A stretch of DNA of 37,336 nt from a virus. The notes beneath the pieces are model-generated. The model was given only the letters and a program-made list of their open reading frames with translations, did no database searches and was not told where the DNA came from. Positions 2,125-23,016 of this stretch are shown piece by piece. The translations under genes and the position numbers were made by a program. The stretch is from the UHGV virus genome UHGV-1375320, one strand, 5' to 3'. Position 1 is the stretch's first letter. Every line of letters starts with the position of its first letter.

Positions 2125-3636
2125 ATGGAAGATAGAATTAAAAATCTATTTCGTAGTAGATTCCAGGAGGCACAACAGGAAAGAAATGTAATACTAGCTT
2201 GGTATTTGAAAGCTAGAGCACATTTTCTACCAAGAGAAATTAATTTAAATGGTGTAGACAGTACAGGACTAGCATATGCTACTAAGTTAGCTAACAAGTT
2301 ATCAGCTATGATACTTAATAGTAATCATATCTGGGCTTGGATAGAAACACCAAGGTTTGAAGATATATCAAGAGATGACAAGATTATCTTTAGACACATA
2401 ACAGAAATAGTATTTGATGAGATTCAAGAAAATTCGAACTTTGAAACAGAGAAAGCTGTAATTCTTATGGACTACCTAATAGGAACGGCAGTATTCAAAG
2501 TTAGATTTACTGGTAAAATTGCAAATCCTGTGGAATTTCAACCAGTACCCAATATAAATGTTTATCTTACTAAAAGAAGAGGTAAACAACCTGGAGATAC
2601 ATTCTACAATGCAGGTAAAGTGAGAAAACATCAGATTCTTAATCTTTTTGGAGAAAATGCTTATAACTCTGAAAAGGTTCAAAGAATGTCACAAGATGAT
2701 GAGATAGAGTTGTGGGAAGGCACAATATACGACCAAGAAACTAAAATGTTTCACTATGTAGTATCTACTTCAAATGAGTTTGCAGACGTTTTAGATTATA
2801 GGATAGACACTTACAATCCGTGGATAGTTGCAAGATATGAAAGTATTGGAGATAGTCCATATGGTATAGGACCTTGTGTTAAAGCGATAATGGAGATTGA
2901 GGGGCTAAAAGAAGTTAAAGCTAACATCAGACGTATTGCTAAGAAACAAGCTAGACCAAGTTATCTGGGGTATGGAGAGGCTAAATATATTCAGAACTCA
3001 AGAATAGATGAGCCAGGAGCTATATCTATGATGGGAATGTCGCCAAATCAAAATCAGATAATACCTTTCAACAGGGGAGAGAATGCTAACATGGAGTTCT
3101 TTAATCTTGATATGTACAAAGAACTTTTGAGAGATATATTCTATATCAACATATTTGAAACGGCTCAAAACTTAGACCAGCTAAAGAATGTTACTGCTAC
3201 AACAACACAGCTAGTAACAACAGAGTTCGCTAAGCAAATAGAGCCAACCTATGCACTAATGCAAAGGGAACTTTTAAGAGAGATAGTTATAAAAGTTTTC
3301 CAATGTCTACAAAAGATTAGCATTATAGATATATCTAAAATTAAAGCTTTACAGGAAAACCCAAGATTAAAGATAAGATTCTACAATGCACTAACAATAG
3401 CACAAGACCAAGACGACCTTGAAAGAAATATGTTGTATTTTCAAAATATAGCAAGCACTCTAGGACCTGAAGTTGCAGCAGCTAATATGAACCAAGCAGA
3501 ATACATAAATGCTCAACAAAAAAGGTTTAGAATCAATAACAAAGAGTGGAAATCTGGAGAGGAAACAGAAAAGCAAGTTGAGGAAATGAACGTTATGATA
3601 GCTGCACAACAACAAGGGGGAATGATAGGACAATGA
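2125..3636 (+). CDS. Putative portal protein
   Basis: 503 aa. It has an AAGGAG RBS and sits between terS and scaffold/MCP, which is the canonical portal position. The size matches podoviral/T7-type portals (~500-540 aa). No direct motif confirmation. Confidence 0.45.
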   Translation: MEDRIKNLFRSRFQEAQQERNVILAWYLKARAHFLPREINLNGVDSTGLAYATKLANKLSAMILNSNHIWAWIETPRFEDISRDDKIIFRHITEIVFDEIQENSNFETEKAVILMDYLIGTAVFKVRFTGKIANPVEFQPVPNINVYLTKRRGKQPGDTFYNAGKVRKHQILNLFGENAYNSEKVQRMSQDDEIELWEGTIYDQETKMFHYVVSTSNEFADVLDYRIDTYNPWIVARYESIGDSPYGIGPCVKAIMEIEGLKEVKANIRRIAKKQARPSYLGYGEAKYIQNSRIDEPGAISMMGMSPNQNQIIPFNRGENANMEFFNLDMYKELLRDIFYINIFETAQNLDQLKNVTATTTQLVTTEFAKQIEPTYALMQRELLREIVIKVFQCLQKISIIDISKIKALQENPRLKIRFYNALTIAQDQDDLERNMLYFQNIASTLGPEVAAANMNQAEYINAQQKRFRINNKEWKSGEETEKQVEEMNVMIAAQQQGGMIGQ

Positions 3637-3854
3637 CAGAAGAGAGAAAAGAGTACGAAGAGTTAAAAAGAAGATACAGAGATGATAGAGCTTTAAAAAG
3701 ACTAATCGAACTATACTTAATGCTCGAACTCAATAGAGTTTCTATCATGAACGACAAAGGAGTTGATACAGTAGGAAAAGTGAAGGAAATAACTGGAGTA
3801 AACAGTTTATACATGGAGATATTCACGAAGGAGGTAAAAGAAGAAAATGACTGA
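3633..3854 (+). CDS. Hypothetical small protein
   Basis: 73 aa, charged. It overlaps the portal stop (4 nt) and the scaffold start (8 nt), as expected for translational coupling. Confidence 0.3.
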   Translation: MTEERKEYEELKRRYRDDRALKRLIELYLMLELNRVSIMNDKGVDTVGKVKEITGVNSLYMEIFTKEVKEEND

Positions 3855-4506
3855 TAAAGAAAGATTTAAATTTAATATCCAATTATTTGGGGGAGCAGAG
3901 GGAGGAGATACAGGAGGAGAACCTACACCAAATCCAGAGCCAACAGTAAATACAGGAGCTGGGGGAGAACCACCACAACCAAGTGGAGATAATGGAGCAG
4001 GGGCAGAACCTAAAGTAGAGCCATTAACTTGGGAAGGAATAAAAGCAGAAGATTACCAAGAGATTGGAGATATAGCACCATATATCGCAGAGGCTCAAGA
4101 AAAAGGTTACACTCCAGAGTACATTAAATCAAGACTAGATGATAGAAAAGCTTATCTAGCAGAACAAAAAGCAGCTTTCACTCCAGAACTTAATGCAAGT
4201 ATGGAAGCAATAAACAATTTCATAGGAGCAGAGAAAGACACAGATAGACAGATAGTATATAGAGCTATGGCAGAAAATGCAATAGGAGCTCAAATCCTAA
4301 AGGAATACATAGAAATGAAAGCAGGAAGTACAGGAAGTGTAGTAGGAGTTGGAGCACCAACAGGACAAATGTATACTAGAAAGGAATTTATAGAGGCTTA
4401 CAATAAAGCTAAAGACACAAATGATAATAGATTAATGGATTCATTGAAAACTTATGCAAGAAGCAAAAAAGAAACAGACCCATACTTTTGGGATTTTATA
4501 AACTAA
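3847..4506 (+). CDS. Putative scaffolding protein with Prp-cleavage motif
   Basis: 219 aa. N-terminus MTDKERFKFNIQLF|GGAEGG. A low-complexity Gly/Pro/Glu-rich linker is followed by a helical acidic domain. It lies immediately upstream of the major capsid gene. Composition and size are like the Staphylococcus phage 80alpha scaffold. Confidence 0.55.
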   Translation: MTDKERFKFNIQLFGGAEGGDTGGEPTPNPEPTVNTGAGGEPPQPSGDNGAGAEPKVEPLTWEGIKAEDYQEIGDIAPYIAEAQEKGYTPEYIKSRLDDRKAYLAEQKAAFTPELNASMEAINNFIGAEKDTDRQIVYRAMAENAIGAQILKEYIEMKAGSTGSVVGVGAPTGQMYTRKEFIEAYNKAKDTNDNRLMDSLKTYARSKKETDPYFWDFIN

Positions 4507-4525
4507 GATTTTTAAGGAGGAATAC

Positions 4526-5560
4526 TTGAGAAATGAAAAAACTTTACTAGGAAGCACAGGATTTAATATCCAACTATTTGCTGGAACACCTAACGTAAAT
4601 TTAACAGAGGGAGAACAAGCAAAATATGTCAACAATGTTATAAGAGCAGTAGGAAAACCAGACGCAAAACCATCAGTAGAAAGATATTTTGCTAAATCTG
4701 TATCTACTAATGCTGCTTATTCTTTATTCTATGTTGGAGGAAGATTAACGGCTCGTGATAGAGTTAGCACTGAAAATCAAACAAACAAAAATTTTGATGA
4801 TGTAAAAGGAGTTACTGCAGGAAAACTTATTAAATCTGTAATGGTAATACCAACAGGTATGGAAGTTCCTTTATGGATAGAGAATACAGAGTTCGACAAA
4901 TCTCAATTAAATGAAGAATCTGCTATTCAAGAAATGCAAGTAGACGCAATTTATAATGGTAAAGATAAAAGAATATCTCAACTGTTATATAAAATTGCAA
5001 CTGAAGGAAAAAGAACTGTAAAAAATAGTGCTGGAGTAGAAACAGATTTAACAATTCCAGAAGCTAATAAATTTGGAGATGAAACAAAACTTTTCTCTGA
5101 CCCATATAACTTAAAAGAGTTTAGAAGAGCAGCAAAGAAATTAAAGAAACTTTCTAAAAATGGTAAGCGTTTAAGATGTATGATTATCGGAGAAGATGCA
5201 AGTGTTGAGCTAGATGATGAAGAAAAGTTTACAAATAAAGATTGGGTAACTATAAACGGAAGCACTCCTAATCAAACAGGAGAAACAATAGACATTTTAT
5301 TAGGAGCTAATGTTGAAGAGTTATTTACATTTGATGAAGTATTCTATCCAACAGGTTCAGAAACAACAGGTTATATTATTATGATGGTTGAACAATGTAT
5401 AGGACTAGATGATAAAAAAGCTAGTGTAAACCCAATAATAGAACACGTTTCTTGGAAAAAAGCTTGGTATTTAGACGTTGAAATTTCAAACGCAACAGAA
5501 TTATTAGACCCAGAGGGAATATTAATATTTAAATACAAGAGAGATATTCCAGCGGAATGA
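4526..5560 (+). CDS. Putative major capsid protein with Prp-cleavage motif
   Basis: 344 aa. TTG start 5 nt after AAGGAGG. N-terminus MRNEKTLLGSTGFNIQLF|AGTPN. A strong intrinsic terminator follows the gene, as is typical for a highly expressed MCP. Confidence 0.55.
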   Translation: MRNEKTLLGSTGFNIQLFAGTPNVNLTEGEQAKYVNNVIRAVGKPDAKPSVERYFAKSVSTNAAYSLFYVGGRLTARDRVSTENQTNKNFDDVKGVTAGKLIKSVMVIPTGMEVPLWIENTEFDKSQLNEESAIQEMQVDAIYNGKDKRISQLLYKIATEGKRTVKNSAGVETDLTIPEANKFGDETKLFSDPYNLKEFRRAAKKLKKLSKNGKRLRCMIIGEDASVELDDEEKFTNKDWVTINGSTPNQTGETIDILLGANVEELFTFDEVFYPTGSETTGYIIMMVEQCIGLDDKKASVNPIIEHVSWKKAWYLDVEISNATELLDPEGILIFKYKRDIPAE

Positions 5561-5686: not shown

Positions 5687-5702
5687 ATAAGGAGGAGATA
5701 AT

Positions 5703-5956: not shown

Positions 5957-6385
5957 ATGAGTGGTAAATATGAAAAAATGAAAAAACTTATCCAAGATAT
6001 AGAGGGGGTAGGATTTGAATGTGAAGCTGGATATTTAAGTGGTCTTGTTGCTTGGCAAGAATTAAAAAAAGAGATTGAAGAGCTTGGGGCTATGGAAAGA
6101 CTAGAACCTCGTTGTGTAGATATAAGACTAAAAAATCATATAGAAAGAATGGAGGTGGAATTACAAGAACTAGGAGATAAAATTGAAAGATTAGCTATTT
6201 TCATAGAAAGAGAAAAAATAGAGCCTAAGTTTACAGATGAAGAGCAAAGAATTAAATTAGTATTGCAAAAAGAATATATGATTAATTATGCTGGTATTTT
6301 AAAACAAAGAATATATTGCGATACTTTAAAACTTAATAAAGACCCAGAAGTGGAAAATCATATAGAATTATTACAAAGAAAGTAA
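5957..6385 (+). CDS. Hypothetical protein (coiled-coil rich)
   Basis: 142 aa ORF with a GGAGG RBS. Followed by a CTAGAGC/GCTCTAG hairpin at 6410-6428. Confidence 0.4.
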   Translation: MSGKYEKMKKLIQDIEGVGFECEAGYLSGLVAWQELKKEIEELGAMERLEPRCVDIRLKNHIERMEVELQELGDKIERLAIFIEREKIEPKFTDEEQRIKLVLQKEYMINYAGILKQRIYCDTLKLNKDPEVENHIELLQRK

Positions 6386-6487
6386 CTTTTCTAAATAACT
6401 TACACACAAAGCTAGAGCTTATGCTCTAGTTAAAGCATTTAAAGGCTTGAATGTTTTAATTAGATTATAAGCAAAAAGGGGGTAACA

Positions 6488-6778
6488 ATGATAAATTTAG
6501 AAAGCTATAACTACATAGTAGAATCAATCAAAGAAATAGTAGTTATAAATGGAGAAGAGTATAAAAGAATGGAATTTAAAGAACCTTTTATAACTATGTA
6601 TGAGGCAGCTAGATATTTTTTTAGAATGAAACCTAAAGCTAAAAATCCTATAAAAATATTAGAAAGAGGAGCAGAGGACTGGAAAGAAATTAGTATTGAA
6701 AATTTATTAAAAAAGATAAAGAAAAATAAAACAGAAAAAGCTAGAAGAGCTTTAAAAGGAGTTGATGAAAAATGGTAG
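6488..6778 (+). CDS. Hypothetical protein
   Basis: 96 aa ORF with a GGGGG RBS, packed in a co-directional array. Confidence 0.4.
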   Translation: MINLESYNYIVESIKEIVVINGEEYKRMEFKEPFITMYEAARYFFRMKPKAKNPIKILERGAEDWKEISIENLLKKIKKNKTEKARRALKGVDEKW

Positions 6779-7107
6779 ATATTAAAGTTATGGAGGTTGT
6801 AGATACATCATTTAGAAAAAAATATAAACCTACAACTAAGTTAGTTCCTTCTGGACATCAAGTAAGTAATGCTAATGTTATCTTAAAATACAAAGATGGA
6901 GATTTAGAAATATCTATAAAACTATCTAAGAAACAAGCATTACAAGTATATTTTGATAGTGAAAAATCTCAAGGAAAATACAAAAATGTAGATTATGATA
7001 AATTCCTTGAAAAATTTGAAGCAGGACTAAGTCCGGAAGAGATAGAGGAAGCTATAAAAAAAGAACAATTACCATTTGATAAAGATAAAAAAGGAGAAAA
7101 GAAATAA
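6772..7107 (+). CDS. Hypothetical protein
   Basis: 111 aa ORF overlapping the previous stop. Confidence 0.4.
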   Translation: MVDIKVMEVVDTSFRKKYKPTTKLVPSGHQVSNANVILKYKDGDLEISIKLSKKQALQVYFDSEKSQGKYKNVDYDKFLEKFEAGLSPEEIEEAIKKEQLPFDKDKKGEKK

Positions 7108-7370
7108 TGAGTGGAATGATATATAGAAATATTGAAAGTAATTTCAGAGTAAAAGCAGTATTTTTTAATGGTAAAAACCATAAGGAAGTAGCAGAGGTAT
7201 TATCAGACCATCAAGTCAGAAAAGTTGAGGACTGTATAATGATAGATTATGAGAAAGTAGAACCTAACAACTATATCTATACAGGCTTTGACAGTGTAGA
7301 GTGGTTTGTAAATCCACCTAAAATATTTAATAAGAAGTTTCAGAAAGACAAGTGGGAACAGGAGGCGTAA
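7107..7370 (+). CDS. Hypothetical protein
   Basis: 87 aa ORF with ATGA start/stop overlap. Confidence 0.4.
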   Translation: MSGMIYRNIESNFRVKAVFFNGKNHKEVAEVLSDHQVRKVEDCIMIDYEKVEPNNYIYTGFDSVEWFVNPPKIFNKKFQKDKWEQEA

Positions 7371-7371
7371 T

Positions 7372-7686
7372 ATGGTAAAAGTAAAATTTAAAAGCGACCC
7401 ACATTTTTACATAAAAGAAAAGAGTGGAATAAAAAATAATACAGTAAGAATATATGAGAAATTTTCAGAAGTAGATGAGAAAGATGAGGGATTTGCTATA
7501 TTAAAGCAAATGTATAAGAAACAATTAGAGAATGAAAATAAGTTACCAGATGATGAGGAATTATACATTGAAATAGTAAAAGCAAGTTCTGGAGAAAGTT
7601 TTATCAGAAAAATAAGAGATATAACAATTTTTGAAAATAATTTTGAAATGATTTTTATAATAACTTGGGAACATGAAGAGGTGTAA
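7372..7686 (+). CDS. Hypothetical protein
   Basis: 104 aa ORF, tightly packed. Confidence 0.4.
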   Translation: MVKVKFKSDPHFYIKEKSGIKNNTVRIYEKFSEVDEKDEGFAILKQMYKKQLENENKLPDDEELYIEIVKASSGESFIRKIRDITIFENNFEMIFIITWEHEEV

Positions 7687-7688
7687 TT

Positions 7689-8195
7689 ATGACATTAGAT
7701 GAAAAATACTTAAATGAACAGGCAGATAGCGTAATAATTGAAGAGAGCGGTTGTTATACAGGAGTTATAACAAAGGCAGAGTTATTTGAGGCAGGAGATA
7801 GCAAGGCAGTAGCATTAAATCTTACAATAAAGGTAAATGAAGATATATTGCCTCTAAGTCTTTTCTTTAAAGCTAAAGATGGAAAAGATATAGCATTTAA
7901 TTTAAGACACATAGCACATCTTATGTATTTAACTAAGCACAAACCAGAACTAAATCCAGTAGTTAGAGGAGAGAAATTGGTTATTGAAGAACTTGAAGGT
8001 GCAGGTATTGGAGTTATAGTTGAATGTAAACAAAATGATGGAAGAGTAGAAAGAAGAATCCAAACTTTTGTAGATATGAAATATAAAAGAACTGCAAAGG
8101 AAAATAAAGATGGTGTTGATATTCCAGTAACTTGGAATAAATATCGTGAAAAGTATGGAAAGGTAGTAGAACATGATGATGAGTTTCCATTCTAG
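7689..8195 (+). CDS. Hypothetical protein
   Basis: 168 aa ORF with a GAGGTG RBS. Confidence 0.4.
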   Translation: MTLDEKYLNEQADSVIIEESGCYTGVITKAELFEAGDSKAVALNLTIKVNEDILPLSLFFKAKDGKDIAFNLRHIAHLMYLTKHKPELNPVVRGEKLVIEELEGAGIGVIVECKQNDGRVERRIQTFVDMKYKRTAKENKDGVDIPVTWNKYREKYGKVVEHDDEFPF

Positions 8196-8216
8196 GAGAG
8201 GAGGAAAGAAATTAAA

Positions 8217-8642
8217 ATGTTACACGGTATTACTGGCTTATCTCATGGCTTATTCAAAAATAATAAAGAAAAAATGGAAGAAGCAAGAAGAAAAGATTTT
8301 GAAAAATACACTGGAGCAAAACAAGTAAATACTAAAGTAAAAAATGATAAATTAATAAAATCGAATCCAGATATAAAACTCTTATTAGAAAACCAAAGTG
8401 TTGACGTCAACAAAATGATAGCAGTAGAGGAATTATCAGAGTTGCAAAAAGAAATCTGTAAGGATTTAAGAGGTTTTGATAGGAGAGGAGAGATAAAAGA
8501 AGAGATGGCAGACGTTTATATCTGCCTCCAACTTTTAAAAGAAATTTATAACTTTGATGATGAAGAGTTAGAAGAAGAGTATAAAAGAAAAATGGATAGG
8601 AATATAAAAAGAATCAAAGTCAAAAACAAGGAGATGAAATGA
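8217..8642 (+). CDS. MazG-like nucleoside triphosphate pyrophosphohydrolase domain protein
   Basis: 141 aa. AVEELSELQKE...EEMADVYICLQLLKEIYNFDDEELEEEYKRKMDRN matches the MazG 'EE.GEL....E..D.L..L..LA...G.D' helical metal-binding pattern. Confidence 0.4.
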   Translation: MLHGITGLSHGLFKNNKEKMEEARRKDFEKYTGAKQVNTKVKNDKLIKSNPDIKLLLENQSVDVNKMIAVEELSELQKEICKDLRGFDRRGEIKEEMADVYICLQLLKEIYNFDDEELEEEYKRKMDRNIKRIKVKNKEMK

Positions 8643-8718
8643 CAAGATCTAAAATTATATTAATGTTAGTAGTAGCAGTAATAGTAATTGATGTATTACA
8701 AAAGATAAGGGGGTAGAG

Positions 8719-8949
8719 TTGGAAAAAGTAAAAAATAAAGATTTAATCAATTACAACCCTAAATATCATTTTAATCATAATAAACCTTGGACAAGTAAAG
8801 ACTTAGAGTATGCACTAGATTATAGAAATGATTTAAAAGATATTAGTTTGAAACTGGGTAGAACTATAAGTTCTATATTGCAAAAAAGAAAATTACAAAG
8901 ATTTTGGAAAGAAGCAGATAAATACTCAAGAGTTAAAATTATACCTTGA
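8719..8949 (+). CDS. Hypothetical protein
   Basis: 76 aa. TTG start with an AAGGGGG RBS. Confidence 0.3.
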   Translation: MEKVKNKDLINYNPKYHFNHNKPWTSKDLEYALDYRNDLKDISLKLGRTISSILQKRKLQRFWKEADKYSRVKIIP

Positions 8950-8967
8950 GGTATAAAAGGTGGATAA

Positions 8968-9180
8968 ATGGAAAGAAAACAATGTCCTTGGGGAGTTGCA
9001 CCTATTGTTTTAGAAAAAATACAAGAAATAGAAAGAATTAAAAAAATTTCTAAAAGGTGTGATGAGTTGATAGCTAAAAACTTAGAAAAAAACAGAAGAT
9101 ATTATGAAGGATTGACTACACCAGCACCAAAAGGAGAAACAAAGGTAAGATTTTATAGAATGGGAGAAGATAAGAAATGA
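8968..9180 (+). CDS. Hypothetical protein
   Basis: 70 aa ORF with an AAAGGTGG RBS. Confidence 0.35.
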   Translation: MERKQCPWGVAPIVLEKIQEIERIKKISKRCDELIAKNLEKNRRYYEGLTTPAPKGETKVRFYRMGEDKK

Positions 9181-9371
9181 CATTAAAAGAGTTAGAGGAG
9201 AAAATAAAAGAGATAAAAGAAGATGGAGCAAAGTATAACATTGAAGATTTTGAGGTAGAAATCTTTGGATATACTAGGAATGGAATTGTTAAACTAAAAA
9301 TTGAGAATAGATATGGAAATCCAAGTTTTGATATAGGAGAGAGAAAAGTATGGATAGCTGCACAAGATTAG
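9177..9371 (+). CDS. Hypothetical protein
   Basis: 64 aa with ATGA overlap to the previous gene. Confidence 0.35.
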   Translation: MTLKELEEKIKEIKEDGAKYNIEDFEVEIFGYTRNGIVKLKIENRYGNPSFDIGERKVWIAAQD

Positions 9372-9428
9372 AAACAAAGAGACAGCAGTTAAAGACTAAA
9401 AAAAATAACTAAAAGGAGAATAGGGGAA

Positions 9429-10010
9429 ATGAAAAAGATAGTGATAGAATTTGCAAGAGATGTTTTGGAGCTAAAAGGTTATGAAGATGAAAAAATAAAA
9501 ATAATTGATGTAACTGGAATTAGTAAAGTAAAAAAAGAAGTAAAAAAACCAGGAATTTTTCAAATTAAAAAAGCGTACGAGGAAGTCGTATATGTTGATA
9601 AAATCACTTACGTTAAAACTTTAATCAAATCAACTGGGGAAACTATAACATTTTCATTTCGTGGTATTGACTCTTTAGTTTATCACATGAGAGAATTGTT
9701 TGAAAAATTATATTCTGATGAAGTTATTGGATTTACTGGTAGAAATGTTGCTAACTTCATAAGAAAAAATTTAGATAATGAATTTATAATTCTAACTTCT
9801 TTAGAAGAGTTTACTAGAATTGGGGGAGCTTTATGTGGTAATGGTTCTGATAAAATTAAAACAGGAATAATTATTCCTAAAGAACATTTAAAAGAAGTGG
9901 CAAACGGATTTGAAAAAATTAACTTTTGGTTTACAAATATAATAGGTATGGAAAGCACAGATGGAGAATCAATTTGCCTAGAAAGTGTATTTTCGGATTG
10001 GCCGTGGTAA
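9429..10010 (+). CDS. Hypothetical protein
   Basis: 193 aa with an AGGAGAATAGGGG RBS. No recognisable motif. Confidence 0.4.
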   Translation: MKKIVIEFARDVLELKGYEDEKIKIIDVTGISKVKKEVKKPGIFQIKKAYEEVVYVDKITYVKTLIKSTGETITFSFRGIDSLVYHMRELFEKLYSDEVIGFTGRNVANFIRKNLDNEFIILTSLEEFTRIGGALCGNGSDKIKTGIIIPKEHLKEVANGFEKINFWFTNIIGMESTDGESICLESVFSDWPW

Positions 10011-10247
10011 AATGAAAACCTGGAATAAAAAGAAAAAACCAAAACATCATAGCAAAGTAAAATATAAAGTTTATCCAAAAAGAAAAGGAATAGTAAGTAC
10101 AGTTAGAGAGTGCAGATGTAAAAAATTTAAAAATTGTTATCTTGTACCAAAACAATTTTTTCTAATTATTTTAACTACTAATAGGAAATCTAAAAAATAT
10201 AAAAAAGTATCAAAACAAACCTGTAAAAAAAAGTATTAAAAGTACAT

Positions 10248-10277
10248 TGTTTTTTATCTCTAAAAATAGTATAATTA
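10248..10277 (+). promoter_or_regulatory. Putative sigma70 promoter for the serine recombinase gene
   Basis: TTGTTT (10248-10253), 17 bp, TATAAT (10271-10276), about 50 nt upstream of the recombinase ATG. It lies inside a 320-bp AT-rich non-coding leader. Confidence 0.4.
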
Positions 10278-10329
10278 TGGTATTAAGTGAAACGAACGAC
10301 AGAATAAATACTAAAAGGAGAGATAAAAG

Positions 10330-14048: not shown

Positions 14049-16174
14049 TGGCAGGAACATTAATACAACCTTTAAAAATAAATAGACCAAGTGGTAGAGC
14101 AGTACCACAATTAAATATAGCTGCAGATTTTGGAGTAGAGAGAAATGCAGCTACTAAAATAGAGGAACTTTTCCAGAAAAAACAAAAGCAAGACTTAATA
14201 CAAGCAGAAACATTCGGGCAGCAATTTGCTGCCTCTATGTCTAAAATGATATTAGATAGAGATAACCAGGGAAAAATAAATAAAAAATTATTCCATAATT
14301 TTGATTCTTATAACTCTTTAGAAAGTGAAATAAAAGCTAATATAGAGCAATTTAAAAAAGATGGAAAAGAATTAGGAATAGATGATTCTATATTAGAAAA
14401 ATATAGTTCTATGGTAACAGGAGAGCTTGAAAAATCAAATGTAAATTATTTAGTTGAATATAATGACTATAATGAGAAAATTCAAAAAGATGAAGCTAAC
14501 AGAATTATAAGAATGAAAGGAGATAATCTTTCATCAGTTGCTATGCTTGGAGATTATCAAGGAGCAGTACAAGGTTTTTACAATGTAGCTCAAGATTTAG
14601 ATAGAGCAATAGAAGCAGGATATATAGATGGGACAAAAGCTATTGAACTTGCTAGCAAGCAAAGACAAGATATTATAGTAAGTTATGTGTCATCTTTTGT
14701 AAATCAACCAAATGGTAAATCAATTCTTGAAAATATGTCTACTTGGAATACTTCTCAATTTATGGAAAAGTTTTCAGAACTTAACTTTAAAAATGATACA
14801 GGAGAATTTTATTTGACAGTAGATGACTATAACAAATTTCAATCTACTATAACAAGTGGAATTACAAGAATAAATAATAAAGAAAAATTAAATAAGCAAA
14901 ATACTATGGTTGAGAGATTAAAGTATGAACAAAAGAAAAAAACAAACTCTTTAGAAATTGCTTTAACAGAAGACCAAGTGTCAGCAGATGGGTATATTCC
15001 AGAAAGCACACATGTAAAAGCTACATATTACGCACATGGATTGGAGGGTATACCAAATATACCTACCACAATAAATGGACTAATAGAGGCTGGATATAAC
15101 CCACCTTGGAAAGAAAAAGGTTTAAATGATACCACAGAAGTATATAAAAATCCTAATTTAACAGGAGAAGGAATAATGAACTTTAGACAACAAGAAGCTG
15201 AAAGATTAGCTAATGGTTATGGATATGGAGCAGTAAAAAACTTCTATGATACCACAGATGAGAATATAATAGGTGGAAGTATGCTTATGGAAACATACCA
15301 GATGAATACTACCTTTAAAGATGAGTTTGACAAAGTATATAGTTCTGATAACAGAAAAATACTTGCTAATTTTGATAAAGTTCAAATAACTGATTTTTCT
15401 ACTTTAAAAGAATATAATACAGAATTTCAAGGAGTAGATGACCCATATTATGCTACTCCTACAAGTTTTATGTCTGGCCAGGTTAGTAGAAAACCACAAA
15501 AGACAATGTCAATAGCTGCAGGTGGTAAAATAGCTGGACTACAAGTAGCAGCCAATAATGGAAGTTTAGCAGCTACAAGAGCAACTAAAGATATAACTCA
15601 AATAGCAACTGACACACTAATATTAGAGTTGTATTCTAAATATGGTGGTGTAATAACAGATGATTTAGCTGATAAAGGAGGACTAAAAGAAAAATATGTA
15701 GGTCAACCTATAGCTAGTTTAACCCCAGAGCAACAAAGGACTTTCCTTAAAGGAGTTTTAGAAAATGATAAATCAATAAGAGAAACTGTAAATTCCAGGG
15801 TAGAAAATGTAGTTAATGCTATGACAGAGGGGCTAGATACTATTAATTTAGGGAATAATAGAGTTATATTTGCACCTAAAATAATAAAAGAAGAGGAGAG
15901 AACTAACTTTATAACAGGTCAAATAGATAGAGGTTTTGTTGTTAAAGAAAGAGATATAGAAAAAACTCAAAAAGCTATAAATGAAATGATAGCTAAAAAT
16001 ACATATAAAGTTAATTTGAATGGAACTATTAAAGAAATAGGAGATAAGAAAAATATAACTTTTGTACAAGATATAGGGAGCACAAAGGTAAGACTTTTCT
16101 ATGGTATACAACCAGTCTTTACTGATAGTGGATATGCAGTATTTGATATAGAAGAGTTTATTAAGGAGGAATAA
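14048..16174 (+). CDS. Hypothetical large virion protein (size/position parallel T7 gp15 internal core protein)
   Basis: 708 aa, translationally coupled (ATAATGG) to both neighbours. Confidence 0.35.
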   Translation: MAGTLIQPLKINRPSGRAVPQLNIAADFGVERNAATKIEELFQKKQKQDLIQAETFGQQFAASMSKMILDRDNQGKINKKLFHNFDSYNSLESEIKANIEQFKKDGKELGIDDSILEKYSSMVTGELEKSNVNYLVEYNDYNEKIQKDEANRIIRMKGDNLSSVAMLGDYQGAVQGFYNVAQDLDRAIEAGYIDGTKAIELASKQRQDIIVSYVSSFVNQPNGKSILENMSTWNTSQFMEKFSELNFKNDTGEFYLTVDDYNKFQSTITSGITRINNKEKLNKQNTMVERLKYEQKKKTNSLEIALTEDQVSADGYIPESTHVKATYYAHGLEGIPNIPTTINGLIEAGYNPPWKEKGLNDTTEVYKNPNLTGEGIMNFRQQEAERLANGYGYGAVKNFYDTTDENIIGGSMLMETYQMNTTFKDEFDKVYSSDNRKILANFDKVQITDFSTLKEYNTEFQGVDDPYYATPTSFMSGQVSRKPQKTMSIAAGGKIAGLQVAANNGSLAATRATKDITQIATDTLILELYSKYGGVITDDLADKGGLKEKYVGQPIASLTPEQQRTFLKGVLENDKSIRETVNSRVENVVNAMTEGLDTINLGNNRVIFAPKIIKEEERTNFITGQIDRGFVVKERDIEKTQKAINEMIAKNTYKVNLNGTIKEIGDKKNITFVQDIGSTKVRLFYGIQPVFTDSGYAVFDIEEFIKEE

Positions 16175-19100
16175 TGGCAGGACTTGTAACTTATGGTAAT
16201 AAATTATCTTTAGAGGGTAATGATAATGTAATTAAAATAAATAAAGAATATTATGAGGCTAACAAAGAAAATATAGAAAAATTCAACGTTGTAGGTAATA
16301 AAGTATCTTATGATATACCACAATTAGAAATTATAGGAGATATATTATCTAGTTCTAAAAATATTGCAAAATCAACTTACTATAGTTGGTTAGGAGCTGC
16401 ATATAAAAGTGCAACAGGAGAAACAAAACCTATAGATTTTTTAAAAACAGCAGAGGAAAACCATATAAAATATAAAGATTTTGCAAGTAACTTTAAAGAT
16501 AGCTTTAGAAAAAAAATAGAATTAGAACCCAATATAACTCAAAAGTGGGCTATGAGTGCAGGAGCAGAGAGTTTAAGAGTTGCTACTGATGTAAGACAAC
16601 TCCCTGTATTACTTGGGACCACTCTTTTAACTCCGTATGTTGCAGGATATATAGGAGCTACTTCTGTAGCTGGTAGACTTGGAACAACGGCAGTTTTAAA
16701 TGGTATAGAAAATATGGTGCAAGAAAGTGCAGATATTTATATATCAGAGGGTAGAACTCCAGAACTTGATGAGATTATTTATTCTGGAGTTGGTGGAGCT
16801 GGTGCAGGACTTTTATTTGCTGGTCTAGGAATGGGAATAGGTAAGGTAGCTAATAAAATAGAAACTAAGTTTGATAATATAGCAAGAAAAAAGAAATCCC
16901 AAGAAATAATAATAAATCTATTTTCAGAGGCTGATAAAAAAATACAAGAAAGCTCTATATTAAATAATGGAGATATGACTATAAAAGATTTAGAAAATAC
17001 AGTAGGAATAAAAGATAATCTAGGTATTATAAACGAATATAAAGGTTCTCAAGGTAGTGAAAAATTTTTATTTAAGCATTTATATATAAATGATGTTAAT
17101 AAATTTCAAGCTGACTTATATGCTAGGTCTATTGTCTTAAAAATGATAGATGACCCAGATATAGACTTTATCAAAAATGGAGCTGACTTCAACAAAATTT
17201 TAAATGAAAATCCAATTCTTATAAGAAATTTAGCAAAAGAATATATTGATAGTGGAAAACTTGGAGAGGGAGAAAAGAAAGCTTTTGAGTTCTTTTTAGA
17301 CTTAACTAACCCAGACAAGATAACTGATGTAAGAGTTGATGTCCCAGGAATGATGGAAGAGGTTGATAAAAATCTTAATGGCAACGATAGTGGGTATGAA
17401 CCTTTATTTGAAGATATGAAAGTACAACATCATATAGTTGATAGTGAAACTTTTGAAAGAAAAAAAAGAAAAATAAAGCATAATTATAAAGACTTTCCCA
17501 AAGGGACATTACAAGCAAACCTTGAAAAAGATGGAATTATTCCACCAGGTGCAAATGTTAAGTATGTAAGAGGAGCTATTGAGAAAACACCATATCAAGA
17601 CTTGGTACATATTACAGAACATGGAACTCCAATTACTAGAAAAAAATGGTTAAAGGGAGATGCCCATATCAACTTTGAATATGAAATAGATGGTAAGAAA
17701 TATTATGGAGATTATAGACTTACAGAGCAATATGGATATTTAGGAGATACATATGAGCTTGATATTAACGCAGCACCAGGAACACAAAAAAATATAACAC
17801 CCCAAAGAAAAGTAACTAATATAGTAGATGATATGAATGGAACTCCAGAACCAATAAAACCTATTAGTGTTGAAGAGATGAGGAGCATAGTATATAAAGA
17901 ATTAGGACTAGATAAAACTTTTGGAGAACTAGGACAGAAACAACTTACAGAAGAGTTGGTTTATAGTTACAGTAAAAAAGTAGGGGAAGTTATAAGAAAA
18001 AAATATAATATAAATTCCCTGGAAGAAATGGCAGATTTTTATAAAAAAAGATATGGAATATACTTTAAATTTAAAGGATTTGCAGACTTAAAAGGAGCTA
18101 AAGGGGAAACTATAATAAGAAAAGCTAGAGGAACAAACGAACTTATAGGAGATATAGAAATATTTATTAGTAACAATATTCCAGATTTAGAAACACAATT
18201 AGGAGTGATGAGGCACGAATTACAACATGTATTTGACTTTTACAAAAACCCAGAATTTAAAAGTCAGCCATTTTTCACACCTGTTATATTTGCTAATAGT
18301 GAAGTAGGGGATAGATTAAATAGACTTGGTCGTGGACACTTTGCAGATTTTCCAGAGGAATATTTTGAACTATCGTATCTTATAAAAAATAAGTTAGATA
18401 ACTTAATAAATGGAGAAAAACTTGATAACGAAATAGTAGAAGTATTAAAACTTGAATTACCAAAAACAGTAGGTAAAGAAGATATAGAAGTATATAAAAG
18501 TATGCTAAAGGCAGCTCAAACAGAAAGCGACCCAGCAAAAGCAGTAGCAGAGCTTAGAAAAAGTTTTAGTAAGTATGCTAAGTGGAAAAATGATATACCA
18601 GAGATATTTTGGAAAGCTAAAGACGTTGGACAAGCTTCATCACTTATGAGTGAATATCTTGAAACAAATTTATTTATTCCATACGAGAAAACTAAGCAAC
18701 AAATGGAAGGCATGCTAACTAATGCTTTCAATATAACTTATAAAGGCGAGAAATTAAATCCAGATAAATTAATAAGTTTATTTGAAGAGAATGGAGAAAA
18801 TCTAACTCATTATCTATTTAGATGGAATTATAAAAGTTTACCAGATAGCTTAAAAGAGCTTGAACCAGAGATACTAAAATTAAGAGAAGAGTTTTATAGC
18901 ACTATGAAAGAATTGACAAATGGTTATGAGATAACAGTAGATGACATTGTCAATAATTTTATGTTTGACCATAACCTAAGTGCAGAAAAATATATAAGAC
19001 AAGAAGATATATTGAAATATTTAGGAGATGATAAAAAGGTTGATTTAGATAAATTTATAAGAGGAGATTTGAGTTATGATAATTTAGTAGAACTTAATAT

Positions 19101-21087
19101 CCCAGAAAGATTGCTTACTATAAGAAATGCTTTTGCAGAAGATAATTTAGAGTTCTTTGAATCAGCACCAGAAACTTTAATTAATAATCTTAAAGGAAAG
19201 AATAAAGCTCCTAAAGAAAAAATTATAAAATTAATGGCTAAAGCTAATGAGTGTATGAGTTCATCAGATAAGAAAACACTTGTTAAAAAATATAAACTTG
19301 AGGGAATACCACAAATAAAAGAATTTATTGAAAAATCAGACTTTTACAAAGAGGTAGATACTAACCTTATAGCTCAAAATATACTAGAAAGTAGAAAAAA
19401 TAATGCAAAATATTTTTATACTATGGATATGATGAGTAAGAAAGGAAGTTATAAAAATAAATTTCTTGGAGGGCATCTTCATAGATTTGGTAGATTTGAT
19501 GACTTTATTAATGGAGAAAAAATTATAAAAAGAAAAAATCTAACAAGACTTGTAAATAAAAACAAGACTTCTGATAGAACAGCTATCAGAAGATTTATAA
19601 GAGAAATTTCAGTAGCTAAAGCCATTAAAGATAATTTACCAGGACATGGAATGAAGGGTATAGAAAGAATCTTGAATGAAACTCAAAGAAAAACTGCAAA
19701 TGATACTTATAAAACTTTAGTTAGAGCCATTGAGAAAAAAATAGATGATAGGATAGGAATGGATTTAGGAAGAATTACAAAACCTCCAAAAACAATAGCA
19801 GACAAAGCTATCACTAACCTTTTAAGTTATAGTAATAAAGTTAGTTTAACAGGGCTTAAATTTACAAAGGACTTTATATTTGAAGCACCAACAATGGCAA
19901 GGGCTAGCACTATGTTATATAATTCAGCAGGTATTACTGAAACTTATAAAAATTTTTTAAAGGCTGCACAAGTACTATATTTAAGCAAAGAAATGTTTGA
20001 TAAATATGATAAAGCTTTAGGAAGCAGATTTGAATATTCAGTACCTTTAAAATTTTTCAATTCTATTATGGATAAGGCAGATGATGTAACAGGAGAGATA
20101 GCAGAAAGGATAAATAAGTATGGTAGTAAATGGGAAAAGATAATTAGTGGAATAGACACAGGACTTAATAAATTAAATTTTTATGGAGAGAGCCAAAAGG
20201 TTATGAAACTTGCAGCTTTTTTTGAGGGTGCAGAGATTTTAAGAAATATGAGTAAATTTCAAGACTTAGATGATTTATTTAAAAACAATACTGCCTATAT
20301 GAAAAATTTATTTAAAAATGTAGGTATAGATGATTTAGACTTTTATTTCATAAAAAAATTAAAAGATATTCCAGAATTTAATGAGTTAGGTGTATTTAAT
20401 GAAGTTGACTTATTTGATTTTATAAATAAATCAGAAGTAGAAAAACAATTAGGAAGAGTTCTATACAATGAAGAATTTGACTTAATAAGAAAAAATATTA
20501 CTGAAAAAATAACTAAGTTACATGACAAAATAGTTACTGATATTTCACCTACTGAAACCAACGCTTCTATGAGAGCTGTCATTGAAAATATTGAAAATCC
20601 TATCCACAGAAATTTTATGAGGTTGATGGGAAACTTCAAAACTTCTATACAAGAACAGTGGAGAAGATTGGGAAGAGATTTATACACCTCTAATATAGTA
20701 GATGGGCATTTCGATTGGGGTAATAAGATATGGCAAAAAAGATTATTCAAACATATCTTAGGAGTAACAGGACTATATGGAGGACTAGCACTTGTAACCG
20801 ACTTAGATTTTTACACTGACCCAATAGCAACTATCAATGAAAAAATAGATGATTTAATAGATAGTCCAGGTAGTGCATTTTGGGAAGTACTAGATTCTCA
20901 AATAAACTCTTGGGCTTTAGTTAATGGTTCAGCAGTAGCAAGAAGACCTATACAGATAGCTCAAAATTTATCTAAAGGAGATTTTGAAAAAGCTGGAGCA
21001 AATATTTTAAAACTAGGACTAGGTACCTCAAATGTTAATATGGCTAAAACAGGATATGGTTTAGCAGAAAAAATAGTAGGAGAATAA
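16174..21087 (+). CDS. Giant virion protein (1637 aa) with an HExxH zincin-like motif and a Gly-rich hydrophobic segment; candidate ejection/internal-core protein or tape-measure analogue
   Basis: Uninterrupted 4.9-kb ORF. MRHELQHVFDF is an HExxH motif, with downstream Glu candidates in NSEVGDR/FPEEYFEL. GVGGAGAGLLFAGLGMGIGKV is a membrane-active Gly-zipper-like stretch. It is the last gene before a strong terminator and parallels T7 gp16 by position and size. Confidence 0.45.
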   Translation: MAGLVTYGNKLSLEGNDNVIKINKEYYEANKENIEKFNVVGNKVSYDIPQLEIIGDILSSSKNIAKSTYYSWLGAAYKSATGETKPIDFLKTAEENHIKYKDFASNFKDSFRKKIELEPNITQKWAMSAGAESLRVATDVRQLPVLLGTTLLTPYVAGYIGATSVAGRLGTTAVLNGIENMVQESADIYISEGRTPELDEIIYSGVGGAGAGLLFAGLGMGIGKVANKIETKFDNIARKKKSQEIIINLFSEADKKIQESSILNNGDMTIKDLENTVGIKDNLGIINEYKGSQGSEKFLFKHLYINDVNKFQADLYARSIVLKMIDDPDIDFIKNGADFNKILNENPILIRNLAKEYIDSGKLGEGEKKAFEFFLDLTNPDKITDVRVDVPGMMEEVDKNLNGNDSGYEPLFEDMKVQHHIVDSETFERKKRKIKHNYKDFPKGTLQANLEKDGIIPPGANVKYVRGAIEKTPYQDLVHITEHGTPITRKKWLKGDAHINFEYEIDGKKYYGDYRLTEQYGYLGDTYELDINAAPGTQKNITPQRKVTNIVDDMNGTPEPIKPISVEEMRSIVYKELGLDKTFGELGQKQLTEELVYSYSKKVGEVIRKKYNINSLEEMADFYKKRYGIYFKFKGFADLKGAKGETIIRKARGTNELIGDIEIFISNNIPDLETQLGVMRHELQHVFDFYKNPEFKSQPFFTPVIFANSEVGDRLNRLGRGHFADFPEEYFELSYLIKNKLDNLINGEKLDNEIVEVLKLELPKTVGKEDIEVYKSMLKAAQTESDPAKAVAELRKSFSKYAKWKNDIPEIFWKAKDVGQASSLMSEYLETNLFIPYEKTKQQMEGMLTNAFNITYKGEKLNPDKLISLFEENGENLTHYLFRWNYKSLPDSLKELEPEILKLREEFYSTMKELTNGYEITVDDIVNNFMFDHNLSAEKYIRQEDILKYLGDDKKVDLDKFIRGDLSYDNLVELNIPERLLTIRNAFAEDNLEFFESAPETLINNLKGKNKAPKEKIIKLMAKANECMSSSDKKTLVKKYKLEGIPQIKEFIEKSDFYKEVDTNLIAQNILESRKNNAKYFYTMDMMSKKGSYKNKFLGGHLHRFGRFDDFINGEKIIKRKNLTRLVNKNKTSDRTAIRRFIREISVAKAIKDNLPGHGMKGIERILNETQRKTANDTYKTLVRAIEKKIDDRIGMDLGRITKPPKTIADKAITNLLSYSNKVSLTGLKFTKDFIFEAPTMARASTMLYNSAGITETYKNFLKAAQVLYLSKEMFDKYDKALGSRFEYSVPLKFFNSIMDKADDVTGEIAERINKYGSKWEKIISGIDTGLNKLNFYGESQKVMKLAAFFEGAEILRNMSKFQDLDDLFKNNTAYMKNLFKNVGIDDLDFYFIKKLKDIPEFNELGVFNEVDLFDFINKSEVEKQLGRVLYNEEFDLIRKNITEKITKLHDKIVTDISPTETNASMRAVIENIENPIHRNFMRLMGNFKTSIQEQWRRLGRDLYTSNIVDGHFDWGNKIWQKRLFKHILGVTGLYGGLALVTDLDFYTDPIATINEKIDDLIDSPGSAFWEVLDSQINSWALVNGSAVARRPIQIAQNLSKGDFEKAGANILKLGLGTSNVNMAKTGYGLAEKIVGE

Positions 21088-21094
21088 AAAAGGA

Positions 21095-21120
21095 GGAGTG
21101 CTGCAACACTCCCCTTTTTT
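21095..21120 (+). terminator. Rho-independent terminator (T1) ending the virion operon
   Basis: GGAGTG / CACTCC stem with loop CTGCAA, followed by CCTTTTTT, 8 nt after the stop. Confidence 0.65.
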
Positions 21121-21248
21121 GACTAATTATAATGCAACTCTGTTTACTAAGAAAAACAGAATAACCAGTATTATTAGTCTTAGAACGAAAGACTTAATGA
21201 TGTTCACCCCCTTTCTTGGTGGGCTAGACTTATTATAACAAAAATATC

Positions 21249-21277
21249 TTGAACTTTCTAGTTATTTTTGTTATAAT
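21249..21277 (+). promoter_or_regulatory. Near-consensus sigma70 promoter with extended -10
   Basis: TTGAAC (21249-21254), 17 bp, TGT-TATAAT (21269-21277). Confidence 0.5.
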
Positions 21278-21283
21278 TTAATT

Positions 21284-21352
21284 ACTAAGAAGAACGGAAG
21301 ACTTAGTATGTTCATCGCTGGTATAGCTGCAACTATACCAGCCTTTTTCTTT
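21284..21352 (+). ncRNA. Candidate small RNA (promoter-to-terminator unit, ~70 nt)
   Basis: Driven by the 21249-21277 promoter. It contains the conserved motif B (AGAACGGAAGACTTAGTATGTTCAT, 21291-21315) inside an ACTAAG/CTTAGT hairpin. It ends in a 9-bp-stem terminator (CTGGTATAG/CTATACCAG, 21318-21341) plus a T-run. There is no ORF with an RBS in the interval. Confidence 0.3.
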
Positions 21353-21400
21353 TTATAGACTTTTTTAGTATTTAATGATATAATAATTTTAAGAAAATCA

Positions 21401-21425
21401 GGCAACCTTTTAGAGTTGCCTTTTT
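21401..21425 (+). terminator. Rho-independent terminator (T3)
   Basis: GGCAAC / GTTGCC stem, 8-nt loop, TTTTT. Confidence 0.55.
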
Positions 21426-21445
21426 CCATTTACAGAAAAATCAAA

Positions 21446-21474
21446 GGACAACCTAAAAGGGTTGTCCTTTTTTT
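21446..21474 (+). terminator. Rho-independent terminator (T4) immediately upstream of terL
   Basis: GGACAACC / GGTTGTCC 8-bp stem, loop TAAAAG, TTTTTTT. It ends about 20 nt before the terL RBS. Confidence 0.65.
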
Positions 21475-21504
21475 ATTTTATCAAACAGGCAAGGAGGTGG
21501 AGTT

Positions 21505-23016
21505 TTGAATTTTTTAGGAAGAGCAGCAAAAAGAAGAGTAACTATCAGTTATAAAAAAGTTATTAAATATCTACACAAAGGACAGAAAGAACTTCTGGAC
21601 AATGTCCTGGAAAATAAGAAAAAGTATTTTGCACTAATGGCTCATAGAAGATATGGTAAGGACTTTATTTCATTACTCATTATGATACTAGCTGCAATAC
21701 AACACCCAGGAAACTACTATATCTATGCACCATACTTTAGACAGGTAAAAGAAATAGTTGTAGATGGGAAAACGTTAAACGGTTTACCTTTACTTGAAAA
21801 TCTTATACCAGATGAAATACTAGCAAATCCAAGAGGACCTAAAGTTAATAAATCAGATTGGAGTGTAACTTTATTTAATGGAGCTAAAATCTTCTTTCGT
21901 GGAGGAGATAACCCAGACGCAAGTGTAGGAGTAGGAGCTAGAGGAGTTATTTACACAGAGGCAGCACTTATAAAAGAAAAGTTCTATCAATATATGAAAC
22001 CTGCAGTTGATATGGTTATCAATAACACAGACTTTGGTTTTGTAATATTTATCTCTACACCAAGGGGTAGATATAATTGGTTTACTAAACTTTTTATAGA
22101 TTACTTCACTATCCTAAGTAAACCAGAAAATAAAGAAATTAAAGATATGTGGTATGTAGATATTCAATCTGGAAAAGATTCTTTGAACTACAAAGGGGAG
22201 AGGGTAATAAATGATAAAGAACTTAGAAAACAAGCTCTTACTATGGACCCAGATTCATACGCTCAAGAGTGGGAATGTAAAATCAATACTCATCTAGTTG
22301 GTGCTTGGTATGGAGAACAACTAAAAAAAGCTTATGAAGATGAAAGGATAAAGTTTTATGGTAGGTATGAAGAGTTATTAGATAGTGTAAGTAGAAGATA
22401 TACTCAAATATACACAGGGCATTTCTGGACACAACAACCTTTATATGTTGCTTGGGATATAGGAAAAAGGGACCATACAGTATTGTGGTTTTTTCAAAAG
22501 AACCCTCACAATAATAGAATTAGATTTATAAAACATTATAGAGTTATTGGGCAAGGACCAGACCACTGCTGCCAATATATAAAAAAATGGTGCAAAGATA
22601 ATGGGTACTATATGCAGCCTACTATGGTACTACCACATGATGGAGATGTCGAGGAATGGAGTGCAACTTCAAAAAGAAGTGACTACATAAGATTAAATTA
22701 TTTTAGTGATGTAAGAACTCTATCTAAGACAGAGCTAGCTAAAAATGATATGACTACATTAATAAATCAAATCAACTATATAAGAAAGGAGTTTGAAAAT
22801 GTAGAGATAGATAATAACGAGTGTAACATAGGGGTTATACAATTAGGAGGCTACGTCAAAAAATATAACAAGTCCATGAACTGTTACTTAGATATACCAG
22901 ACCACGACGCAAATGATAAAGCTTCTGATGACGCAGATTCATTTAGAACTGCTATGATATTTGCTAGCATATATCTAAAAGATAGTTTTGATGGACCACT
23001 AACAACTTATTATTAA
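21505..23016 (+). CDS. terL: Terminase large subunit
   Basis: 503 aa. TTG start 7 nt after GGAGG. A degenerate Walker [11 protein letters not shown], of the G/A-R-R-x-GK-S/T/D type common in phage TerL. The C-terminal half has acidic nuclease-like residues ([22 protein letters not shown]). The size is typical. Confidence 0.6.

Follow-up and report, generated by a model that had tools for sequence, protein, structure and literature searches.

The virus genome UHGV-1375320 joins a T7-plan short-tailed virion module to a predicted repressor switch and an iteron plasmid module

The window analysed here is the whole of the virus genome UHGV-1375320, a complete circle of 37,336 bp, in which a virion module with T7-like gene order stands together with a CI/LexA-type repressor gene and the replication and partition genes of a plasmid. 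We consider it probable that this circle is the full genome of a temperate phage with a short-tailed virion on the plan of T7 and of Legionella phage LME-1, and with a prophage that is most likely a low-copy plasmid. The element works like a T7-plan virion yet stands outside the T7 family proper, and since no phage RNA polymerase is encoded the window does not belong to the Autographiviridae.

T7-plan phages are textbook lytic phages, and a preliminary description of positions 2125-23016, made from synteny and size, had taken a strictly lytic life to be the rule for this architecture. That premise is outdated, being undercut by LME-1, which is temperate, and by Vibrio phage PG9A-2, which encodes an integrase.

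Joining the two ends of the window rebuilds an open reading frame (ORF) of 362 amino acids (aa) that is uninterrupted in sibling metagenome contigs of 37.2-37.6 kb; these share the gene order of the window and differ in their circular permutation. The G+C content is ~30% and the genes are laid out as one long rightward block and a leftward block (28039-34576). Pfam and PHROG scans covered the window ORFs of at least 80 aa. Nucleotide search of the window against phage and plasmid collections gave no match, and neither Rfam families nor tRNAs were found within the window.

Head genes and terminase

The nine ORFs on which the preliminary description was built (503, 219, 344, 172, 598, 178, 708, 1637 and 503 aa) were all found where it had placed them, and the T7 protein sizes that it quoted for comparison (536/307/345/196/794/196/747/1318/586 aa) agree with the T7 record. 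Six of the nine assignments are backed by independent homology, beyond synteny and size, so that the resemblance to T7 is more than chance. All nine genes lie on the + strand.

The portal protein (503 aa, 2125-3636) belongs to the T7 gp8 family. It matched PF12236 (E 8e-29, 100.8 bits with a cutoff of 27) and phrog_332 (E 7e-39), the PHROG that is also matched by T7 gp8 and by the LME-1 portal, which bears out the proposed comparison with gp8. Its best solved relative was PDB 9efk (E 6e-18), assigned to the portal of LME-1 through literature search, and the LME-1 portal was also matched directly by phmmer (E 1e-21). The major capsid protein (344 aa, 4526-5560) matched PF19821 with 28.5 bits (cutoff 25) and phrog_3437 with E 5e-6, a family to which the LME-1 capsid protein belongs at E 3e-40; direct comparison with the LME-1 capsid by phmmer gave E 7e-4 in a set of 30 sequences. 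The terminase large subunit (503 aa, 21505-23016) matched phrog_2 (E 3e-27) and the LME-1 terminase (phmmer E 2e-22). PDB sequence searches with the capsid and terminase proteins gave nothing significant. The putative scaffolding protein (219 aa, 3847-4506), named for its position between portal and capsid, is acidic, Ala-rich and without a hydrophobic segment; it is kept in relatives and matched no PHROG or Pfam family.

The terminase is indeed the last gene of the interval treated in the preliminary description, where its distal position had been taken as a hallmark of the T7 organisation. Downstream of it on the + strand (23025-27937) come two fibre genes, two unassigned ORFs and then those for lysis, and it is therefore not the last gene of the block.

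Tail genes

The tail adaptor, the equivalent of T7 gp11 (172 aa, 11172-11690, + strand), matched phrog_394 with E 2e-4; four of four family members matched the same PHROG, the best with E 4e-8, and the cryo-electron microscopy (cryo-EM)-resolved adaptor of LME-1 matches it at 1e-22. Direct hhalign comparison of the adaptor with the LME-1 or T7 protein was not significant. The tail nozzle, the equivalent of T7 gp12 (598 aa, 11700-13496, + strand), matched phrog_376 (E 5e-29), in which the LME-1 nozzle is found at 7e-69. It also matched PDB 8ck1, annotated 'Tail Nozzle', with E 2.5e-4 as a single sequence and E 5e-7 as a profile, and the LME-1 nozzle by phmmer with E 6e-7. T7's own gp11 and gp12 belong to other PHROGs (446 and 457), and the link of adaptor and nozzle to T7 therefore goes via the structural similarity of LME-1.

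No window ORF of at least 80 aa matched a tail tube, sheath, tape-measure, chaperone or baseplate family in Pfam or PHROG. This agrees with the earlier observation that no tail tube, sheath or tape-measure chaperone pair was evident, and remote homology thus does not place the proteins of the module with siphovirus tail, tape-measure or baseplate families.

Two tail-fibre genes (459 and 370 aa; 23025-25530, + strand) matched PF01391, PF13884 and many tail-fibre PHROGs. Both contain long collagen Gly-X-Y repeats, and the second terminates in an S74 self-cleaving intramolecular chaperone domain. Distant relatives keep the N-terminal part of the first fibre protein and not the remainder.

Putative internal virion proteins

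Three genes between the nozzle and the terminase occupy the positions of T7 genes 14, 15 and 16, all on the + strand. The first product (178 aa, 13512-14048) matched phrog_418, 'internal virion protein', weakly (E 2e-3), and its homologue in the divergent relative L016 matched phrog_418 (1.4e-4) and phrog_805, the T7 gp14 family (1.2e-4). Neither hhalign comparison with T7 gp14 and the 167-aa protein of LME-1 nor PDB profile searches, which were run with this protein and with the adaptor, gave a significant match. The 178-aa protein may thus be a gp14-like ejection protein, an assignment that we regard as weak.

The preliminary description had compared the 708-aa and 1637-aa proteins with the gp15/gp16 core stack of T7, and fold comparison supported this for the former and gave no support for the latter. 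An AlphaFold model of the 708-aa protein (14048-16174), with a mean predicted local distance difference test score (pLDDT) of 75, had as its sole PDB match below 1e-3 the chain 7k5c_A of the T7 DNA ejectosome, aligned over the full length (E 4e-4, probability 0.97). Among BFVD models 37 matches below 1e-3 were obtained, including 'internal virion protein C' of SRT7, VP3 and RPSC1 (Autographiviridae). PHROG, phmmer and hhalign searches gave no sequence-level match. Judged from the predicted fold, the case for a gp15 equivalent is good but not conclusive. The stoichiometry described for the ejectosome of phage ΦM1 would correspond to eight copies of the 708-aa protein and four of the 1637-aa protein.

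The 1637-aa protein (16174-21087), at the gp16 position and of comparable size, is the presumed third ejection protein. It matched no PHROG, Pfam or PDB entry, its AlphaFold model (residues 1-1200) reached a pLDDT of 52 and gave no fold match, and neither hhalign nor a 17-member family profile reached T7 gp16, the 1316-aa protein of LME-1 or the 1057-aa protein of PG9A-2. The family is small, with just 19 representatives among 1.84 billion proteins. A hydrophobic segment rich in glycine lies at about residues 201-223 of the protein, and residues 680-735 (window 18211-18378) contain the motif R-H-E-x-x-H-x-x-D ... H-F ... F-E-x-S-Y, which is invariant across the family. In the poor model this region folds as beta strands followed by a helix and looks like a zincin metallopeptidase. 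It had no Pfam or meaningful PDB match, the PDB hit 8vd6 being a 30-residue stretch of a repeat protein. T7 gp16 carries an N-terminal lytic transglycosylase, whereas the 1637-aa protein has the HExxH region in the middle of the protein instead.

A predicted repressor switch

The CI-like repressor of the preliminary description is present and is of the CI/LexA type. Its gene (34760-35416, + strand) encodes a helix-turn-helix (HTH) domain and an S24 peptidase domain (PF00717 E 3e-24, PF12844, PF01381), with the motifs ASAG (the Ala-Gly site) and GDSMEP and LKKY (the Ser/Lys dyad). A motif scan identified three 15-bp palindromic operators, CAAGT-N5-ACTTG, at 34632-34732. The window contains six matches to this motif compared to 1.3 expected, and the cluster at 34632-34732 consists of two perfect copies and one with a single mismatch. 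The operators lie within the 180-nucleotide (nt) stretch that separates the leftward operon from the repressor gene, and they overlap two divergent sigma-70-like promoters that each score 11/12. In gene and operator features this is an SOS-cleavable switch of the lambda CI/LexA type, for which both cleavage and operator binding are predicted.

Immediately 3' of the repressor gene there is a 200-aa ORF (35426-36028) with an N-terminal membrane segment, followed by a terminator (36047-36071). It matched no family, and its position suggests an exclusion or defence protein that is expressed in the prophage.

Plasmid module and recombination pair

The leftward block contains a gene for a Rep3-family plasmid replication initiator (29758-30717, - strand; PF01051 and PF21205), whose closest homologues on plasmids come from Fusobacterium, Cetobacterium and Leptotrichia (23-29% identity). 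Immediately 5' of rep, at 30805-31074, is a putative plasmid origin made up of seven copies of a 22-nt iteron with the core TGACAAAACTTCACACTAT and an AT-rich repeat. A ParA ATPase (28952-29761, - strand; PF13614 E 7e-35) and, in the position of ParB, a 224-aa coiled-coil protein (28296-28970, - strand) are encoded 3' of rep. No centromere site was identified. The plasmid partition genes of the preliminary description are thus borne out for ParA, as are Rep3, the iterons and a resolvase as parts of the plasmid context, and the ParB partner remains a positional call.

The resolvase is a small serine recombinase of the resolvase/invertase type (231 aa, 10330-11025, + strand; PF00239 E 3e-20) encoded directly 5' of the adaptor, a position that is kept in relatives with 39-45% portal identity. 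At 231 aa it is too short to be a large serine integrase, and we propose a role in plasmid multimer resolution.

The leftward block also encodes a YqaJ-type exonuclease (32183-33142, - strand; PF09588 E 3e-18) and a putative annealing protein of 319 aa (31222-32181, - strand). The earlier reading of these genes as a RecT/Exo pair was right about the exonuclease; the supposed RecT is not Pfam RecT and belongs to phrog_3657 (E 8e-75), labelled 'RecE-linked protein' in some phage records. Siblings carry Sak and Gp157 or RecT and YqaJ at this position.

No ORF matched an RNA polymerase family, and the only ORFs above 600 aa are those of the 708- and 1637-aa virion proteins. Genes for a T7-type DNA polymerase or primase-helicase were not found in the window.

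A proposed life cycle and its alternatives

In the life cycle that we propose, the gp8-family portal, the scaffold and a capsid protein of the HK97 type would form the head, into which the large terminase would package the DNA. The gp11-like adaptor and gp12-like nozzle would form a stubby tail with collagen-like fibres, and the three internal proteins at the gp14, gp15 and gp16 positions are presumed to be ejected and to build a channel across the cell envelope. In the prophage state the Rep3 initiator would act on the seven iterons, ParA and its partner protein would partition the copies and the serine recombinase would resolve multimers. The CI/LexA-type repressor, bound to the three operators, would keep the leftward early operon off until DNA damage led to RecA-stimulated self-cleavage of the repressor and repression was lifted. 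Given that phage RNA polymerase, DNA polymerase and primase are missing, the element relies on the host for replication and transcription. Lysogeny as a low-copy plasmid, and not as an integrated prophage, is the most likely state judging from gene content and contig sizes.

Several observations weigh against parts of this reading. The plasmid state is read from genes and contig sizes, and virion DNA of a replicating phage would give contigs of the same sizes. One relative, syntenic with the window and 45% identical in its portal (L013, ena:ERZ27258110:k141_57172, positions 141528-162895 of 196,346) lies inside a 196-kb contig, which could reflect integration, carriage by a larger replicon or misassembly. 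A res site for the serine recombinase was searched for and none was found, and the 224-aa protein in the ParB position matched no ParB family. Within the virion module, the scaffold is putative and placed by position, and the presumed gp16 assignment of the 1637-aa protein is drawn from position and size and lacks homology. The fold match of the 708-aa protein to gp15 has low TM-scores (0.17-0.26) and comes from a model built on a shallow alignment of 10 sequences; low TM-scores are expected because long helical proteins were modelled in a different conformation.

Chromosomal integration of a temperate T7-like phage, in which Rep3 and ParA would serve for lytic or transient episomal replication only, would resemble the behaviour of LME-1, which integrates into the chromosome, excises and employs its own replication initiator only once it is excised (PMC12407071). 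PG9A-2 likewise has an integrase gene adjoining a virion module of the same type, and both the 196-kb contig and the retention of the serine recombinase across the family could be explained in this way. However, no ORF scanned matched a tyrosine or large serine integrase family, and the recombinase has the size of a resolvase/invertase. The ParA partition genes and the iterons are features of plasmid maintenance that have no role in lytic growth. Moreover, the exact portal sequence, found in 44 collection blocks, was never on a contig longer than 50 kb, the longest reaching about 37.5 kb, and the relatives in IMG/VR are either 37.0-37.8 kb long or fragments. We therefore regard integration as unlikely.

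An essentially lytic or pseudolysogenic podophage that acquired the repressor, Rep3 and ParA without gaining stable lysogeny would also leave genome-length metagenome contigs, from which all the evidence derives and which are expected from free virions as well, and the free exchange of regulatory and recombination modules between near-identical siblings would fit such a phage. Yet the S24 repressor is intact in its cleavage site and catalytic residues, the three operators are clustered at divergent promoters, and a membrane protein is co-transcribed with the repressor. In addition, the retention of Rep3 in a relative with 39% portal identity argues for selection on the plasmid module. Taken together, this makes such a phage quite improbable.

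A siphovirus-type long tail, with the 1637-aa protein as tape measure and the ORFs at 6488-8642 as connector and tail-tube genes, has hardly any probability: the 1637-aa protein is of tape-measure size and largely helical in its poor model, the capsid gene is followed by a series of ORFs of 87-168 aa and a single homologue of the 178-aa protein gave a marginal match (E 7e-3) to a tape-measure PHROG, but portal, adaptor and nozzle belong to families shared with a phage whose short tail is verified by cryo-EM, the 708-aa protein matches T7 gp15 and no tube, sheath, chaperone or baseplate family was matched. This reading was rejected when Pfam and PHROG scans gave SSB-like, MazG-like and resolvase matches and no tail family.

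Relatives and module exchange

In the divergent relatives L015 and L016 the order adaptor, nozzle, ~200 aa, ~690 aa, ~1630 aa, terminase and fibre is retained, and the distant relative L008 keeps a Rep3 homologue. We compared window positions 4526-5560, 14048-21087 and 31222-36430 with the corresponding regions of L001-L006, L011 and L018-L028. Near-identical siblings, with portals 97-100% identical, exchange entire modules. The YqaJ exonuclease and the 319-aa protein are replaced by Sak and Gp157, the S24 repressor by a 104-aa HTH protein and a 238-aa protein, the 344-aa capsid protein by a 421-aa capsid protein with an additional 102-aa gene, and the 708/1637-aa pair by a 665/1842-aa pair. 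Siblings differ in their Rep3 allele as well. A compact family that is found in many metagenomes (the genome itself in samples such as ERZ27252997 and SRR17301532) and swaps its repressor, recombination and ejection modules is therefore a tractable natural example of the exchange of parts between phages and plasmids.

Other genes and sites of the rightward block

The 362-aa ORF that spans the joined ends comes first among the large genes of the rightward operon and opens the core gene set. Its 5' part lies at 37130-37336 and its 3' part at 205-882 (the ORF continuing over 1-882), both on the + strand, and it is kept in siblings and distant relatives. Apart from a weak match to phrog_36664 in the 3' part it had no match in Pfam or the PDB. 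The protein has an invariant motif, Y-x-K-x-Y-S-K-x-x-E ... R-x-E-x-T, which is reminiscent of Rep_trans rolling-circle initiators; Pfam and PDB profile searches gave nothing, and a link to these initiators is conjectural. Three genes of 162, 159 and 83 aa follow (870-2115, + strand). All relatives keep them 5' of the portal, even at portal identities of 39-53%, and they matched no Pfam or PHROG family. One of them could, by position, be the small terminase.

A 71-aa ORF with a weak HTH (36215-36430) opens the rightward operon. Immediately 5' of it, a perfect 21-nt inverted repeat (AAATACAACTAAATTAATTGT / ACAATTAATTTAGTTGTATTT, spacing 31 nt) at 36109-36181 flanks a promoter-like site (36153-36182). 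This repeat looks like a second regulatory site, separate from the repressor operators.

Between the genes for the 1637-aa protein and the terminase there is a non-coding gap of 418 nt (21088-21504, + strand). Four hairpin-plus-T-run sites lie on its + strand, the scan of both strands having given seven compared to 0.3 expected, and the gap also contains two extended -10 promoter-like sites. The final ~130 nt, with the promoter at 21356 and hairpins at 21400 and 21443, are kept in relatives in which the adjoining 1637-aa-type proteins are ~50% identical; the first of these hairpins is invariant and the second varies with partial compensation. The gap may act as a late-promoter/antitermination unit or as a packaging site, or it may encode a small RNA.

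An accessory block characterised by Pfam and PHROG (5957-11025, + strand) separates the capsid from the tail genes. It encodes a Sequestin/crAss001_48-like protein of 142 aa (5957-6385, + strand; PF21825), an SSB-like protein (7689-8195, + strand) and a MazG-like nucleoside triphosphate pyrophosphohydrolase (8217-8642, + strand), the last two recognised by family scan. PF21825 is listed as 'crAss001_48 related' and appears as 'Sequestin' in the precomputed table of the collection; the gene is present in many relatives and not in all. The block also contains small ORFs and the serine recombinase gene (10330-11025), its content differs among siblings, and none of its ORFs matched a tail or connector family, so that it is no concealed long-tail module.

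The lysis genes (26813-27937, + strand; phrog_465 E 6e-39, PF05105 E 7e-33) encode a single-domain endolysin of the T5-type L-Ala-D-Glu peptidase class (26813-27217, + strand), an 83-aa membrane protein (27231-27482, + strand) and a holin (27428-27937, + strand; PF05105). The affinities of the cassette are mixed. The endolysin is 45% identical to endolysins of phages infecting Gram-negative bacteria, and the holin is nearest to holins of Clostridium, Streptococcus and Staphylococcus phages. No spanin was recognisable in the lysis cassette (26813-27937).

Host

The signals for the host are in conflict. Distant relatives are binned in metagenome-assembled genomes of Faecalimonas and Filifactoraceae, which is weak evidence, and the closest counterparts of the holin and the annealing protein occur in phages of Clostridium and other Gram-positive bacteria. 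A monoderm (Gram-positive) member of the Clostridia can be suggested as host tentatively at best. Against it, an endolysin of the single-domain T5 type speaks for a diderm, and the nearest Rep3 proteins are in plasmids of Fusobacteriota. Most of these signals would be reconciled if the host were a diderm of low GC content, for instance a fusobacterium.

Should the host belong to the Clostridia, this would be the first T7-plan podovirus with an ejectosome of the gp14/15/16 type shown for a Gram-positive host, and also the first T7-plan phage kept as an iteron plasmid, with an HExxH (zincin-like) region where T7 gp16 carries a transglycosylase. The interest of the element would rise if a Gram-positive host or the plasmid state were directly shown. 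The ejection proteins are nearly unrelated in sequence to those of T7 and could reveal which features of an ejectosome are truly required, a lesson that would be greatest if the host envelope is unusual, as in Fusobacteriota and Gram-positive Clostridia.

Comparison with known systems

Temperate phages with T7-like virions are already known; what is new is the probable plasmid lifestyle and a presumably low-GC host. We found no description in the literature or in phage-plasmid surveys of a T7-plan virion combined with iteron-plasmid maintenance, although each half is known.

Like the window, T7 has its genes in the order gp8, 9, 10, 11, 12, 14, 15 and 16, with approximately the same sizes, both portals belong to PF12236 and phrog_332, and the model of the 708-aa protein matches the T7 ejectosome chain 7k5c_A. 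Pairwise phmmer of window proteins with T7 proteins gave no direct similarity. T7 differs in being strictly lytic, in having its own RNA polymerase, DNA polymerase and primase-helicase, all missing from the window, and in having its terminase genes after the fibre and holin genes.

Matches to the portal among phage records were confined to Vibrio phage PG9A-2, Pelagibacter phage HTVC034P and Methylophilales phage MEP301 (22-24% identity), all phages of Proteobacteria from seawater. PG9A-2 has the same order of virion genes and an integrase as its lysogeny gene, where the window has plasmid genes instead; as read from its record, the terminase of PG9A-2 is probably upstream of the portal.

Phage-plasmids such as P1, N15 and SSU5 resemble the window in combining a full virion module with a replication initiator, partition genes and a site-specific recombinase, and in having no integrase. 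Catalogued phage-plasmids are mostly myo- or siphoviruses, and the few podoviruses among them are in the F116 community (Pfeifer et al. 2021, PMC7969092). A detectable homologue of the window portal occurred in just one of 72,556 plasmid records, that of LME-1.

LME-1 (KT271770) is temperate, its particle is short-tailed and T7-like by cryo-EM and its virion genes are in T7 order (Nicholson et al., Sci Adv 2025, PMC12407071). At ~30 kb it is like the window in having no phage RNA polymerase and in the order of its virion genes, namely small ORF, portal, small ORF, scaffold, capsid, adaptor, nozzle and proteins of ~170, ~800 and ~1300 aa; portal, capsid, adaptor and nozzle belong to the same PHROGs in both (phrog_332, 3437, 394 and 376), and cryo-EM has resolved the capsid, adaptor and nozzle of LME-1. 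It differs in its chromosomal integration, its record showing neither ParA nor a Rep3-iteron module, in a head-decoration gene after the capsid gene where the window has the 5-kb accessory block, in the position of the terminase after the fibre, in its gammaproteobacterial host and in a portal identity of only ~23%. LME-1 was only recently shown to be temperate, and the window couples the same particle design to what is most likely the lifestyle of an iteron plasmid.

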